From Escherichia phage EAWsc9, in sequence record PQ341120.1: DNA of 64,000 nt; one strand, written 5' to 3'. The position numbers and the translations under genes are program-made. The notes below the pieces were generated by a model, which ran no database searches, had not been told where the DNA came from, and was given only the letters and a program-made list of their open reading frames with translations. Shown here piece after piece: positions 161 through 60,747 of this stretch. Position 1 is the first letter of the stretch. Every line of letters starts with the position of its first letter.

Positions 161-814
161 ATGGAACCAAAAGTAGGAATATCAATACCCGACCTACTTT
201 TTGGACTTCTTGATAGAATTTTTAAAGATAATGCGACCGGGAAAGTTGTTTTTTCCCGGGTACTAGTTATTGTTCTATTATTTTTAATGGCGGTAATCTG
301 GTATAAAGGTGATGCACTTTTAGATGCGTACAGGGATGCTTCATATGCCTCATACACTGAAATGATAAGGCAAGACCAGGATAACAGATTTAAAATTGCA
401 GCTATCGAGCAAATCCAGATAGTCCACTCGTCAAGTGGGGCAGACTTTACAGCAATATATTCTTTTAGACCAACTAACCTTAACTACTTTGTGGATATGG
501 TGGGTTACGAGGGGATATTGCCTGATACAGTCGACGAAAAAAATTTAGGTGGGTTTCCAATAGATAAGACTTCAGCGGAATATTTGGCGGGGGTTAATGG
601 TAATTATTTTGAATCCAGTGTGGAATCTGTATTCTTACCAACAAAGAAAAAAAGCAGCTTCACATATATGTTCAGCTGCCCATTCTTTAATTTGGAAAAC
701 GTTTATGCAGGCACAGTCTCACTGTACTGGTATAAGCAAAAACCCGACCTTGGTTTTGATAGGCTTTCTTCTATGTGTGGACAAGCAGGTCGTACGCTCG
801 GGCGTACACGTTAG
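161..814 (+). CDS. t: Holin T (lysis protein t)
   Basis: 217 aa; N-terminus DLLFGLLDRIFKDNATGKV, single TM, C-terminal LPTKK...YMFSCPFFNLENVYAGT closely matches my recollection of T4 holin; strong SD. Confidence 0.93.
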   Translation: MEPKVGISIPDLLFGLLDRIFKDNATGKVVFSRVLVIVLLFLMAVIWYKGDALLDAYRDASYASYTEMIRQDQDNRFKIAAIEQIQIVHSSSGADFTAIYSFRPTNLNYFVDMVGYEGILPDTVDEKNLGGFPIDKTSAEYLAGVNGNYFESSVESVFLPTKKKSSFTYMFSCPFFNLENVYAGTVSLYWYKQKPDLGFDRLSSMCGQAGRTLGRTR

Positions 815-57096: not shown

Positions 57097-57621
57097 TTAT
57101 GCGAGAACCGTCTTTAAACGCTCTTCAAACTTCTGAAGGAGTACCTGGCGCTCTGCTCTTTGTTTGGTATAGGTTTCAATACGCTCTGAAGTGAGATTGT
57201 ATTGTTCATTAACTGATTCCCTCATGAATTCAGGAATCTCTTTACATGCTTTGATTTCATTGAACTTATCAAGCACCGCTTGTTGTTCAGCAATCAGACC
57301 ATCATAATATTGGATATCTGATTTGATGTTTTGTACATCAGATTCAGTAGGCATATTTTTCTTCGCTCTTGTCGCCTGATACTCTGCATTAGTCTCTCTT
57401 GACCAGAACAAAGAGCGATTTTTGTTGGTGTTTTTATACACATCAACAATACCTACTGAATCAACAGTCACAATCCAGTTCCAGGCGTTTTTATAAGTTT
57501 GACCACCTGATACTGTAATCTCACCCGCACAAGCAACATCATTAAAGAACTTGCTTTGTGCTTCTGATTTAAAATTACCATTATTGTAATTAATCAGATT
57601 AAAGATTGATTTGGCTTCCAT
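57097..57621 (-). CDS. Hypothetical protein (174 aa) with C-terminal coiled coil
   Basis: ATG at 57621 after promoter cassette leader. Confidence 0.5.
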   Translation of the reverse strand: MEAKSIFNLINYNNGNFKSEAQSKFFNDVACAGEITVSGGQTYKNAWNWIVTVDSVGIVDVYKNTNKNRSLFWSRETNAEYQATRAKKNMPTESDVQNIKSDIQYYDGLIAEQQAVLDKFNEIKACKEIPEFMRESVNEQYNLTSERIETYTKQRAERQVLLQKFEERLKTVLA

Positions 57622-57657
57622 TTTATTCTCCAGTATTTGGTAACTCAGTATGGGAAC

Positions 57658-57686
57658 ATTATACGCCCATCCCCATACCATGTACA
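57658..57686 (-). promoter_or_regulatory. Early promoter cassette (TGTACA-17-TATAAT + CCATACTGAGTTACC leader)
   Basis: Repeated family member. Confidence 0.5.
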
Positions 57687-57689
57687 CAT

Positions 57690-57992
57690 TTAATTAAAAG
57701 TTCTTTCAGTATTTTCACCACTGAACCAGACGCTCTTAACGGCTTGCTGGGCGCGATGTAGCTGCTCTGCCATATAAACACCAAGGGCCTCAGCCTTACG
57801 TGTCCTGTGGGCTTCTGCGGCGACTATTTGCAACTTATCCATCATGATAAGAGCTTTACATTTCTCCTTCAGAGCATATCGCTTCTTCTCTTCTGGAGTT
57901 TTGACCATTCCTCTTAACTTGTGCATTTTCAACTTAAAATGGTCAGCAGATTTCAGACATGCCTCAATCATGTCAAGTTCATACTTTTTCAT
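57690..57992 (-). CDS. Hypothetical basic helical protein (100 aa)
   Basis: SD GAGGA. Confidence 0.5.
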   Translation of the reverse strand: MKKYELDMIEACLKSADHFKLKMHKLRGMVKTPEEKKRYALKEKCKALIMMDKLQIVAAEAHRTRKAEALGVYMAEQLHRAQQAVKSVWFSGENTERTFN

Positions 57993-57998
57993 AATTCC

Positions 57999-58205
57999 TC
58001 ACTTGCGACGACGTTTTGGTAATGGTTTAGGGAAGAACATTGCTTTACCTGCAGGGGTCAAAGTCACACGCAAAGCATTACCAATACCAAGGGATGCTTT
58101 AACCAGACCTTTGGCTTTTAACTCACCAAATGCTTGACGTTGTTCAGGGTCACGAGTGTTAACCATCAGACCTTTTTCACCAGCAGCTTTGATTAATTCT
58201 AACAT
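57999..58205 (-). CDS. Hypothetical basic protein (68 aa)
   Basis: SD GGAGAATAAA. Confidence 0.5.
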   Translation of the reverse strand: MLELIKAAGEKGLMVNTRDPEQRQAFGELKAKGLVKASLGIGNALRVTLTPAGKAMFFPKPLPKRRRK

Positions 58206-58246
58206 TTTATTCTCCGTTTGTTTATTTGGTAACTCAGTATGAAATC

Positions 58247-58275
58247 ATTATGCATCATGACCATCTGGTTGTACA
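58247..58275 (-). promoter_or_regulatory. Early promoter cassette (TGTACA-17-CATAAT + CCATACTGAGTTACC leader)
   Basis: Repeated family member; abuts start of plus-strand gene. Confidence 0.5.
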
Positions 58276-58322
58276 CATATACTAAATAAAAATACTTAAT
58301 AAAACCATAAAGGAGAAAGTTT

Positions 58323-59069
58323 ATGATTTTATCCGGAAGAACTGTTGATGAACTCAATGAAAAAGTCCAGGCTGCCTTGGCTAATAATTGGTATTTGTTT
58401 GGTTCTACTATGGTGTTGCCGAATACCCCTACAGATAGCAAAGAGCGTTTTTTCCAAACTATGTCCAGCTCGGAAACTCAGATACCGGGCCCGCCTGGGC
58501 CAAAAGGAGACCCGGGTGTACCAGGACCAAAAGGAGACCCAGGCGGGGATGGAAAGTCTTCTTATCAGATATGGCTTGACTTGGGAAATACAGGAACTGT
58601 TGATGATTTTTTAACTGATACAGCAGGAAAGAGGGAAAAATCCGAGGTGTTTTGGAGTGGTATAAACGTTCTATTAACTAATGGTACGACTTCAAACATA
58701 ATTAGTGTTTTAAAGGGGATTCCACCGACTGCAGGGACTCTATCTCCGTTTTTTAGAACCACTGATGATAAGTTGTGGCCATATAACCAAGACAGAAGCC
58801 TAATGTTTAAACTCAACCTTATTGGTAATTTTGCAGGAGCCTCGCAAGCTCGAAGTATAACATTAAATTTCGTTGGAACCAACGGAAACACTTATATACA
58901 GAATCGTCCGGAAAATGCTACAGATATTTTGTCTTTTACAACGTTCTTTAGCATTGATAAAGATGGGGCAATGGCAACCAATGGTACAGCTATAACTGTT
59001 ATGCCAAATGGCGGCAACTTTACAATAACCTCTGCATTGTTAGTAGCCGAACAAACAGTGACTTCATAA
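58323..59069 (+). CDS. Collagen-repeat fibre-like protein (248 aa), plus strand
   Basis: Strong SD AAAGGAGAAAG; Gly-X-Y run GPPGPKGDPGVPGPKGDPGGDG followed by SSYQIWLDLGNTGTVDDFL, the motif that follows collagen repeats in many phage fibre proteins; Asn/Thr-rich C-terminal domain. Confidence 0.65.
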   Translation: MILSGRTVDELNEKVQAALANNWYLFGSTMVLPNTPTDSKERFFQTMSSSETQIPGPPGPKGDPGVPGPKGDPGGDGKSSYQIWLDLGNTGTVDDFLTDTAGKREKSEVFWSGINVLLTNGTTSNIISVLKGIPPTAGTLSPFFRTTDDKLWPYNQDRSLMFKLNLIGNFAGASQARSITLNFVGTNGNTYIQNRPENATDILSFTTFFSIDKDGAMATNGTAITVMPNGGNFTITSALLVAEQTVTS

Positions 59070-59077
59070 ACAAAAAA

Positions 59078-59091
59078 GGGCCATCCGGCCC
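59078..59091 (-). terminator. Hairpin (GGGCC-loop-GGCCC) + U-run terminating the minus-strand NTase operon
   Basis: Stem-loop followed by UUUUUUG on minus transcript; sits between convergent genes. Confidence 0.5.
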
Positions 59092-59280
59092 TTAGATTGC
59101 ACTCCAAAAATTATGGAATCTTATAGTATTGATAGCCCAGTTAACAAACCCGCGAGTTTGTTTGGGAGTTGGTTTGCATATGTACTTATTGTTGATTCGT
59201 CTGCCAGTTTCCCGACAGACTGCTTCGAGATACCAGCGCCGACCTTTATTAGGTCTTCCGTATGATAAGAAGACCTTCAT
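59092..59280 (-). CDS. Small basic Cys-containing protein (62 aa)
   Basis: ATG 8 nt after NTase stop; MKVFLSYGRPNKGRRWYLEAVCRETGRRINNKYICKP. Confidence 0.45.
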   Translation of the reverse strand: MKVFLSYGRPNKGRRWYLEAVCRETGRRINNKYICKPTPKQTRGFVNWAINTIRFHNFWSAI

Positions 59281-59287
59281 TTCTTCA

Positions 59288-60298
59288 TTAACGATAATAG
59301 GAATTGTGGTTGTCAAGATATACCTCTTCAACAAACTTGTCCCAGAACTTCATGTCTACCTTATCAGGCATACCATTCTTAGCAGCCTGGATGGCCAGAA
59401 CTTCAACTAAATCGACAGTATCTTCAAGAAGTTCTTGAACTTCTTTAAATGGCAATTCACCAGCTTTAATCAGCTTAATGATAGAGGCTTCACGCAATGG
59501 GAATACCAAGTCACCCGTTTGGTAGATTTCCATCAATTGATACCCTGCACGATAAGCATGGCTCAGTGCTTTCCAATCAATACCTTCGTTAGCTTCTGCT
59601 TTACGAGCACGTTCACCATATTCGGCGTCGAGTTTATTCAGAGATTGCTTGAGCTCGATTAATGACAGAGTAGTTTGGTATTTACGACCGAGGACAGTAT
59701 AGAACGTTTGAGGACCTGTTTTCTCATGGTTATGAAATACCCATTCGCAGAACTCGTTTTCAGGGAGTCTGTGTTTGATATCTTCTACCTTAGTACGTCG
59801 TTGCTTAGCGGAACCATCTTCTTGATAGTCAACCCATTGTTCAGGAATCTGGTTAACAATTTCCAATACACCACGCAGTGCAGCCAATCGAGAACCTTTA
59901 ACACCATATTTGGAAGCTTGCTTACGGACGTACCCCAAATAGGCTTTCATGTTAGTTGTATAGAACCGTGAACGGTTGTCCTGAATAAACTTCCATACAT
60001 CTGGTAAATCGGATTTGACTATCAGGTCAGCCGGGGTGTGAATCATATCCAGAGCAACGGTTTCGCCATCAGCCGCCAGTTTAAAGAAATATTTCAGACT
60101 ATAAAGTTCATGGTCAACATCATCTTTTGTATTTTTGGTAGCCGTGTTATTCGTGTTCAGGTTGGTATGGTTCATCGCGGTTCCGAGCAGGATATCTCGC
60201 GGATGAGGAACAAAGATTTCTTTAAAATCGACATCAGATTCCGGGGTACTTGTTCCATAAAGATGGCTACCGAAGTAGCCTTTCATAATAGCTTTCAT
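59288..60298 (-). CDS. Putative Pol-beta-superfamily nucleotidyltransferase (336 aa)
   Basis: SD GAGGACAAAGA; N-terminus FGSHLYGTSTPESDVDF fits the hG[GS]-x9-13-[DE]h[DE]h NTase signature; start overlaps upstream stop (ATGA). Confidence 0.6.
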   Translation of the reverse strand: MKAIMKGYFGSHLYGTSTPESDVDFKEIFVPHPRDILLGTAMNHTNLNTNNTATKNTKDDVDHELYSLKYFFKLAADGETVALDMIHTPADLIVKSDLPDVWKFIQDNRSRFYTTNMKAYLGYVRKQASKYGVKGSRLAALRGVLEIVNQIPEQWVDYQEDGSAKQRRTKVEDIKHRLPENEFCEWVFHNHEKTGPQTFYTVLGRKYQTTLSLIELKQSLNKLDAEYGERARKAEANEGIDWKALSHAYRAGYQLMEIYQTGDLVFPLREASIIKLIKAGELPFKEVQELLEDTVDLVEVLAIQAAKNGMPDKVDMKFWDKFVEEVYLDNHNSYYR

Positions 60299-60747
60299 TC
60301 TTTGTCCTCGAAGTGGATTACTGGGCACATCTTAGATTTACGAGCTTTGATATATTGAATGAAAACATTTTCTTTAATTTCCTTTCCTTCACGTTTAGCT
60401 TTAATGCGTTCCCATTCTTTTTCTTCTTTACGTAAATCGTACCAGGCCCATAAATTCATTAGACCATACATTAGACCAAATGCTACCGTCAGAATAAGAG
60501 CCAGTGTAGCTAGTCCTAAAATAAACCCTAAGCCTAAACCGACCGGGGTGCTTAATACAAAGAAATGCTCTAATACACCTGCACCCGCGACAGTTAATCC
60601 AAAAACCATACTACCGATAAAAACGGCACAAACAAAACAAGCCCAAACCATTTTCCAGAAATAAGCACACAAAGAGTGTGGACGAGAATGACGGTCATAA
60701 AAACGGTCGTGGAAACGAGCGTGCCATGAGTTTGTATTGATAATCAT
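60295..60747 (-). CDS. Membrane protein (150 aa), His/Arg-rich N-terminus, ~3 TM helices
   Basis: SD AAGGAAA; hydrophobic segments VWACFVCAVFIGSMVFGLTVAGAGV, FFVLSTPVGLGLGFILGLATLALILTVAFGLMYGL. Confidence 0.6.
   Translation of the reverse strand: MIINTNSWHARFHDRFYDRHSRPHSLCAYFWKMVWACFVCAVFIGSMVFGLTVAGAGVLEHFFVLSTPVGLGLGFILGLATLALILTVAFGLMYGLMNLWAWYDLRKEEKEWERIKAKREGKEIKENVFIQYIKARKSKMCPVIHFEDKE

Follow-up and report, generated by a model that had tools for sequence, protein, structure and literature searches.

The window analyzed here, a stretch of 64,000 nucleotides from Escherichia phage EAWsc9 (sequence record PQ341120.1), carries at 58323..59069 on its plus strand a gene encoding a fiber protein of 248 residues. 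An alignment of 14 homologs (A3) revealed that this protein is built of four modules, namely a DUF1737 domain, a collagen-like stalk, a linker, and a knob related to that of the Sf6 tail needle. The gene would specify a small homotrimeric virion-surface fiber that is made late. Three N-terminal DUF1737 domains would anchor this fiber, most probably on the head shell at or near the capsomer centers as in phage phi24B, eight Gly-X-Y triplets would form a short collagen triple helix of ~7 nm, and the Sf6-type tumor necrosis factor (TNF)-like knob would trimerize and present a distal binding surface. The design overall would be like that of C1q or of PRD1 P5, projecting outward with exchangeable knobs, rather than that of a tail needle. 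We estimate the probability of the complete reading, a late trimeric virion-surface fiber located on the head, at roughly 0.45; that the protein is a trimeric virion-surface fiber, wherever it is attached, is considerably more probable. We infer the trimeric state, the incorporation into virions, the location on the head as opposed to the tail or neck, and the binding of a ligand from the results that follow.

A preliminary description of this DNA, made from its letters, had reported an open reading frame (ORF) of 248 codons with a strong Shine-Dalgarno sequence, and inspection of the sequence confirmed the coordinates, the ATG start, the stop codon after residue 248, and the AAGGAG motif (58310..58315, plus strand) lying 7 nt 5' of the ATG. 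The region around this motif is kept as AAAGGAGAAxGTTTATG in phages AnYang and C6. The plus-strand product scored 112.3 bits against PF16532 in Pfam, where the curated cut-off is 27 bits, and matched PHROG 1030 at 3e-67 and the knob of Sf6 gp9 (PDB 3RWN) at 1.3e-31 by phmmer. The plus frame was fully open at 7/7 homologous loci, where the minus frames varied. Because of these three matches and the conservation of the plus frame, the case for coding is far beyond chance. Every one of the 8 carriers in the window lineage has kept the ORF whole, and synonymous changes exceed non-synonymous changes there (7:3 and 4:2). Two minus-strand ORFs overlapping the gene (58565..58891 and 58892..59107), which the preliminary description had allowed might be the ones expressed, share the orientation of the neighboring early genes. 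Neither, however, matched any PHROG family, and their frames are unconserved while the plus frame is always open and encodes a product that matches curated families and a solved structure at 1e-31 to 1e-67. We rejected them as genes, and the notion that they are real and the plus-strand ORF spurious is barely credible. Judged by sequence criteria, 58323..59069 is a genuine gene and the overlapping minus-strand ORFs are shadows.

The C-terminal domain, which had been described as rich in Asn, Thr, and Gly, was refined by Pfam, PDB, and Foldseek searches to a TNF-like jelly-roll knob of the Sf6 tail-needle type spanning residues 99-248 (58617..59066, plus strand). PF16532 aligned with residues 99-244 at 2.6e-32 over profile positions 30-175 of 175, and 14/14 family members matched it. 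The HS1 knob (4K6B) was matched at 3.9e-31 by phmmer, and the C-terminal 150 residues are homologous to the Sf6 gp9 and HS1 knobs at ~40% identity. In an AlphaFold2 (AF2) model, the knob had predicted local distance difference test (pLDDT) values of 75-94, and Foldseek placed it on 3RWN with a template modeling (TM) score of 0.84-0.87, a root-mean-square deviation of 1.8 Å, and an E-value of 3.7e-16. Remoter Foldseek matches included PRD1 P5, C1QL, TNF-like lectins, and the exosporium protein ExsFA. The domain is a true member of the Sf6 knob family.

The knob of Sf6 holds an L-glutamate between subunits, clamped by E146, K200, S248, and D250 (PMC3741392), and these residues map to E108, K163, S210, and D212 of the window protein. 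E108, K163, and S210 are invariant in A3, and D212 is kept in every homolog that covers its column. Since this pocket between protomers is conserved, the same trimer interface is expected. The structural arginine (R195) is also conserved across the family, and the Ser and Asn that flank it and bind phosphate in Sf6 are not kept (N194 and P196). Only monomers were modeled, and it is the pocket between protomers together with the collagen run that suggests a homotrimer. In contrast to the Sf6 and HS1 needles, the window protein has neither a tail-plug domain nor a coiled-coil shaft; residues 54-100 are instead occupied by the Gly-X-Y run and the short linker, and no long helix was present in the AF2 model. 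The phage itself is a myovirus, and the gene lies in an early-gene hyperplastic region rather than in the tail module. Membership of the P22/Sf6 tail-needle (gp26/gp9) family was rejected, the knob alone being common to the two; apart from DUF1737, Pfam gave no match at the N-terminus.

Residues 1-53 (58323..58481, plus strand) correspond to a divergent DUF1737 domain of beta-alpha-beta-beta order, a putative virion or capsid anchor. DUF1737 (PF08410) was matched in Pfam by 12/14 family members, the best at 6.4e-05, and the ortholog-type protein P0037 scored 26.2 bits, above the curated cut-off of 24 bits. A profile of the N-terminal domain returned only 15 proteins in an exhaustive search of 1.84 billion representatives; among these were P0037 and, with library-wide E-values of 4e-5 to 2e-4, canonical single-domain DUF1737 proteins (P0042-P0045) that score 27.6-62.9 bits against the same cut-off. 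Such transitive profile evidence supports the assignment of residues 1-53 to DUF1737 at the family level. Comparison by hhalign with residues 1-72 of phi24B gp84 gave a probability of 74%. The AF2 model of the domain (pLDDT 81.5) has strands at residues 2-5, 23-32, and 42-49 and a helix at 8-20. The predicted fold, one helix on three antiparallel strands, agrees with that of DUF1737 as seen by cryo-electron microscopy in a preprint on phi24B, which also found the domain bound around the pore of central hexons (bioRxiv 10.64898/2026.04.10.717836). Structural neighbors in BFVD included proteins named DUF1737 (TMq 0.75-0.84). A profile search of the PDB with the N-terminal domain gave only GCN4-like helix noise at E ~0.2, and a Foldseek search of the PDB with the model gave nothing below E 0.5. 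The DUF1737 assignment points to the head rather than the tail. The domain also occurs in P0038, a metagenomic protein of 520 residues with two tandem DUF1737-like domains, ~8 repeats of the 'IQWR' type, and an unrelated C-terminal domain; this architecture shows that the anchor can occur in duplicate and be put to use with other passengers.

Between anchor and knob, the eight uninterrupted Gly-X-Y triplets of the stalk (residues 56-79; 58488..58559, plus strand) read GPP GPK GDP GVP GPK GDP GGD GKS, with 7 Pro among the first 12 X and Y positions, and lead into SSYQIWLDLGNTGTVDDFL, just as had been described. The window stalk scored 17.6 bits against the Pfam Collagen model (PF01391), below the cut-off of 27.2 because the run is short; homologs with longer runs matched at up to 2.9e-15. 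Triplet number varies among homologs from 0 (RB43, Slopekvirus-like, and Klebsiella phage Kpn BU9) through 8-9 and 15 (fHe-Yen9-01) to 22 (a metagenomic homolog), which is the behavior expected of a spacer stalk. Tandem Repeats Finder (TRF) found no DNA-level tandem repeat in the collagen segment. The linker module KSSYQIWLDLGNTGTVDDFL, delimited with A3 at residues 78-100 (58554..58622, plus strand), recurs in tandem and interleaved with collagen runs in the phage fiber proteins P0035 (three copies), P0037, and P0013 (at least four copies), and PHROG tail-fiber families matched over residues 54-131. The earlier statement that a fiber-type motif follows the collagen run was borne out, and the likeness then drawn to tail-fiber and receptor-binding proteins holds for the collagen and linker modules only. 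No Pfam model matched residues 78-100 even at E 10, and the identification of the SSYQIWL...DFL linker as Mtd_N (PF18454) was rejected on that ground; P0013 has an Mtd_N match elsewhere (residues 30-67), and its linker is a separate tandem module.

The argument for late expression comes mainly from the orthologs. Five of these (C6, AnYang, L015, L016, and fHe-Yen9-01), whose leaders are of three unrelated kinds, carry the T4 late promoter box in its perfect form, TATAAATA, at -29 to -33. Perfect TATAAATA boxes number only 5 on both strands of the 64-kb window, and genuine late genes of the lineage have a perfect TATAAATA or AATAAATA. The spacing in the orthologs is the same as that of gp22, gp24, gp26, gp51, and uvsW in phages RZ and VR7 and matches that of the holin T gene. 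The latter (161..814, plus strand; PF11031, 1.8e-66) is the sole other plus-strand gene in the window and was used as an internal control, having a perfect TATAAATA at 135, 26 nt upstream; in this genome, the plus strand together with a TATAAATA box means late. The fiber gene had been said to run opposite to its neighbors, and the other real genes from ~1.6 to 64 kb are indeed all on the minus strand. RB43-type loci (RB43 and L017) have CATAAATA at -30, the C being complementary to the start codon of the divergently oriented methylase gene, and the first T of the late box was reported to be poorly conserved in such phages (Nolan et al., PMC1524935). Late expression is well supported for the family by these sequence comparisons. 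Upstream of the window copy lies a degenerate late-promoter region, TATA[CT]AAATAAAAATA (58278..58294, plus strand), containing the two imperfect boxes noted at the outset, ACTAAATA at 58281..58288 and TAAAAATA at 58287..58294. A promoter scan found no plus-strand promoter of the sigma-70 or MotA type upstream of the gene, nor was a MotA box seen by eye. Late expression of the window copy is uncertain and may be weak.

Full-length orthologs were found in Dhakavirus (AnYang), Tegunavirus (fHe-Yen9-01), Pseudotevenvirus (RB43 ORF128w), and a Slopekvirus-like contig; phage C6 and contig L015 have the same leader type as AnYang. Every T4-like ortholog stands alone on the opposite strand amid early genes of the nrdC region, usually beside nrdC.11. 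The proposal that the gene behaves as a late-gene island was upheld by this placement on the opposite strand, seen in five T4-like genera, together with the ortholog boxes. ORF128w of RB43 is a direct ortholog with 47% identity, having the same DUF1737, linker, and knob at the same position near nrdC.11, but proteins of the RB43 type lack the Gly-X-Y run. The RB43 hoc gene (NC_007023.1 143352-143855) is annotated only as fragments of 61 and 47 residues and looks like a pseudogene; with hoc fragmented, the hexon centers would be left free. C6 (MW679410.1) is 100% and 96% identical to AnYang in the anchor and linker but 70% identical in the knob, and its knob shares 94% identity with that of the window; its leader is of the AnYang type, and its downstream hairpin is of the window type. 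C6 is an intragenic recombinant, and knobs are therefore swapped separately from the anchor. The homolog in Klebsiella phage Kpn BU9 precedes the portal gene, and its ATG overlaps the stop codon of the terminase large-subunit gene, an arrangement by which it is predicted to be translationally coupled to the large terminase. Homologs in Ackermannviridae (Vi01/CBA120-type) differ in being knob-only, with neither DUF1737 nor collagen. Virions of a Vi01-like phage purified on CsCl yielded 16 spectra of one such homolog (PMC10892097), and the knob homolog is also an indel among Vi01-like phages (PMC5048108). Such 'outside' knob homologs in RB43 and Vi01/CBA120-type phages were recorded in 2013 with function unknown (Leavitt et al., PMC3741392), and our literature search found no later work on them.

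A number of observations weigh against a late fiber anchored on the head. The window copy itself scored 13.8 bits against DUF1737 (E 0.054), below the cut-off, and its loop aligned with that bearing the phi24B 'tooth' Tyr42 (residues 33-42) is 3 residues longer and contains no Tyr; RB43-type and fHe-Yen9-01 homologs do have a Tyr in this loop. The capsid-binding role of DUF1737 comes from one preprint on one podovirus with a different capsid protein, and the hexamer formed there by DUF1737 is mismatched in symmetry with a trimeric collagen stalk and knob. Proteins of the DUF1737 fold are also found in BFVD for the giant viruses Yasminevirus, Hyperionvirus, Harvfovirus, Terrestrivirus, and Edafosvirus, which lack an HK97-type capsid, and therefore the role of the domain cannot be hexon-pore binding everywhere; it is fused to enzymes as well, and need not always bind HK97-type hexons. 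RZ, a carrier within the window lineage, also encodes a Hoc-like protein that should fill the hexon centers. A collagen helix of eight triplets is very short. In a hybrid P22, the Sf6/HS1 knob did not confer host specificity, and mutating the glutamate pocket produced no phenotype (PMC3741392), so that a binding function for the knob is only putative. With regard to timing, the window boxes TAAAAATA and ACTAAATA, at -36 and -42, each deviate from TATAAATA, the T4 late consensus, match none of the variants that precede real late genes of the lineage, and are of a kind (one mismatch) that arose by chance in ~16% of shuffles of the AT-rich leader. Finally, the literature yielded no experimental placement of the family in T4-like virions.

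One alternative is a fiber or tip protein of the tail (baseplate, tail tip, or neck/whisker) whose N-terminal domain docks on a tail or neck component; the capsid binding reported for DUF1737 may not carry over to T4-type particles. Both the 'tail needle knob' label of database entries and the 'tail' category of PHROG imply a tail location. The knob has its homolog in the distal tip of the Sf6/HS1 tail needles, the central spike of Staphylococcus phage phi812 (9EUL) is capped by a similarly folded knob, and proteins annotated as tail fibers typically contain collagen and linker modules. The PHROG 1030 alignment, however, covers only profile positions 97-259 of 268, the N-terminus being DUF1737 instead, and the protein has no counterpart to either the N-terminal tail plug or the coiled-coil shaft of the P22/Sf6 needle. 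The tails of T4-type phages have a gp5/gp5.4 spike and not a gp26-type needle, which also counts against this placement, and the gene is never within the tail module, the Kpn BU9 copy lying between the terminase and portal genes. We consider a tail-associated protein unlikely, and the label 'tail needle knob' in RefSeq and GenBank is probably misleading for myoviruses and not a statement of location.

Less likely again, in our estimation, is that the protein is no part of the virion, being either a soluble or cell-associated late product, such as a lectin-like factor released at lysis, or, in the window lineage, the poorly expressed remnant of a decaying cassette. The TNF-like lectins BC2L-C and PLTL are soluble proteins, the gene is dispensable, and knob mutations were without phenotype in the P22 hybrid; for decay there is the degraded box of the window lineage with no sigma-70-type promoter upstream. 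The intact ORF in 8/8 carriers and the excess of synonymous changes argue against decay. Against a product outside the virion, no signal peptide or hydrophobic N-terminus was found in the sequence of the fiber protein, the architecture is that of assembled fibers, the orthologs have canonical late promoters at the spacing of structural genes, and a knob-only homolog was present in purified Vi01-like virions.

The head-fiber reading can be set beside several known systems. Like phi24B gp84, a NanS-p esterase, the protein would carry a larger passenger on a flexible link behind a small N-terminal domain of a helix and three strands; but the passenger is an esterase there and a collagen stalk with a knob here, Tyr42 is not conserved here, a hexamer was observed there and a trimer is expected here, and the capsid of the window phage is a T4-type gp23 shell that also carries Hoc. 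PRD1 P5 and the C1q/TNF superfamily share the overall plan, in which a short collagen-like segment joins an N-terminal anchor to a trimeric jelly-roll knob. Foldseek matched 1YQ5/1YQ8 and C1QL at 2e-4, and PF08949 was weakly matched in two homologs, yet beyond the fold no relationship is detectable in sequence; P5 is located at the vertex penton of a phage that contains a membrane, and the C1q proteins are from animals. T4 Hoc and T5 pb10, which are dispensable, late, outward-projecting head decorations with a proposed role in weak adhesion, are a proposed model for the fiber. They differ in being monomeric Ig-like chains with no homology to it (no Ig domain was found in the fiber protein by Pfam and fold searches), and a Hoc-like gene coexists with the fiber gene in RZ. 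What is new here is the DUF1737-collagen-linker-knob architecture, the boundaries of the cassette, its placement as a late island, the mosaicism of knob and anchor, and the hypothesis of a head decoration.

A more elaborate and speculative version of the head-fiber reading, which we hold to be rather improbable, is that of an interchangeable C1q-like lectin fiber of the head. DUF1737 would plug gp23 capsomers, perhaps competing with or replacing Hoc, while a swappable TNF-fold knob bound glycans of the host surface or mucus. The fiber would then be a modular second adherence system, in which recombination at the linker/knob boundary reassorts the specificity and the number of Gly-X-Y copies sets the reach. 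The gene is an optional accessory one whose relatives are already annotated. If the fiber is on the head, however, DUF1737 would be a portable capsid-docking module for two shells, a T=9 podovirus head and the prolate T4 head, and T4-like phages would have a second decoration system besides Hoc and Soc, one with exchangeable heads. Such a fiber would matter for how phages adhere to mucus and surfaces, for adsorption independent of host range, and for phage display and engineering, where it would offer a natural trimeric display scaffold.

The window belongs to a VR7-type T4-like myovirus of the genus Gaprivervirus, and over 57500..60500 it shares 99.6% identity with Yersinia phage vB_YenM_P8 and 94-98% with Escherichia phages DK-13, RZ, and ECML-359. 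The fiber gene is ringed by minus-strand early genes, with homologs of nrdC.8, nrdC.9, and RB69 ORF102c on its left and a 62-residue homolog of VR7 ORF100c followed by nrdC.11 on its right. Junctions from blastn, alignments, and annotated contexts delimited a gene cassette of 811 bp (58277..59087, plus strand) comprising a 46-nt leader, the ORF, and half of a hairpin. It is carried by the window phage, P8, RZ, DK-13, ECML-359, and a few others, in total by only 8/281 phage records that match the flanks, and is absent from UPEC07, the closest relative of P8. By blastn, homology to VR7 and VR20 ends at 58276 and restarts at 59088 (VR7) or 59288 (VR20). The suggestion that the gene is an acquired accessory was borne out by these sharp indel junctions, 58276/58277 and 59087/59088, and by the lack of the cassette in near-identical genomes. 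The same slot holds a different small gene, ORF099c, in VR7 and only a 42-bp stem-loop in VR20. Pairs of near-identical genomes with and without the cassette (P8 versus UPEC07; RZ versus VR20) constitute a natural experiment.

A promoter scan placed a sigma-70-like promoter, TGTACA-17-CATAAT (58247..58275, minus strand), before the minus-strand gene 57999..58205, and sequence conservation runs as far as its -35 element, which marks the left junction of the cassette. The empty site of VR20 likewise consists of the stem-loop and then the minus-strand promoter adjoining the left junction. In general layout, this stem-loop and promoter resemble PeSL elements, composite stem-loop and early-promoter motifs that are proposed to shuffle modules in T4-type hyperplastic regions (Arbiol 2010; Comeau 2014; PMC2839356, PMC4122927). 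The cassette is dispensable and moves in and out of a slot bounded by promoter and terminator beside nrdC.11. The knob cassette adjoins nrdC.11 in most T4-like genera examined, an adjacency that is probably a positional coincidence of a recombination hotspot.

The gene had been described as convergent with the nucleotidyltransferase module and as sharing a terminator hairpin with it. A convergent neighbor is present, but it is the small VR7 ORF100c homolog (59092..59280, minus strand; 62 residues from its ATG) and not the nucleotidyltransferase itself. The GC-rich hairpin (59076..59093; -12.7 kcal/mol, z -3.2) does lie between the two convergent genes; it is followed by TTTTTTGTTT on the minus strand, where it forms a canonical intrinsic terminator, and has no U-run on the plus strand. 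The small gene lies between the hairpin and nrdC.11, with its ATG 8 nt after the nrdC.11 stop codon; the P8 annotation includes it as ORF110, whereas the RefSeq record of RZ omits it. The small gene is outside the cassette relative to VR7 and absent from VR20, and the slot therefore has at least three alternative contents. nrdC.11 (59288..60328, minus strand) encodes a nucleotidyltransferase of the RlaP family (PF10127, 'RNA repair pathway DNA polymerase beta family').

VR7 (NC_014792.1 107816-110045) encodes, beside hoc, a protein of 427 residues that is Gly-X-Y nearly throughout (PF01391, 9e-42), and a second Hoc-like gene and a duplicated gp24 are found there as well. Kinship of the fiber to this collagen protein (ORF196w) was rejected, the similarity being confined to Gly-X-Y. 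The collagen protein, the second Hoc-like gene, and the duplicated gp24 may be an alternative head-decoration set; RZ, which carries the knob cassette, has neither the VR7 collagen protein nor the second Hoc-like gene. In the record of vB_YenM_P8 (PP693301.1), the homologs of nrdC.8, nrdC.9, and nrdC.11 are labeled 'thioredoxin', and the 68-residue gene equivalent to 57999..58205 of the window is labeled 'tail tube protein'. Both labels look like errors of annotation transfer, which the 'eleven ORFs for thioredoxin' of the P8 paper probably reflect.

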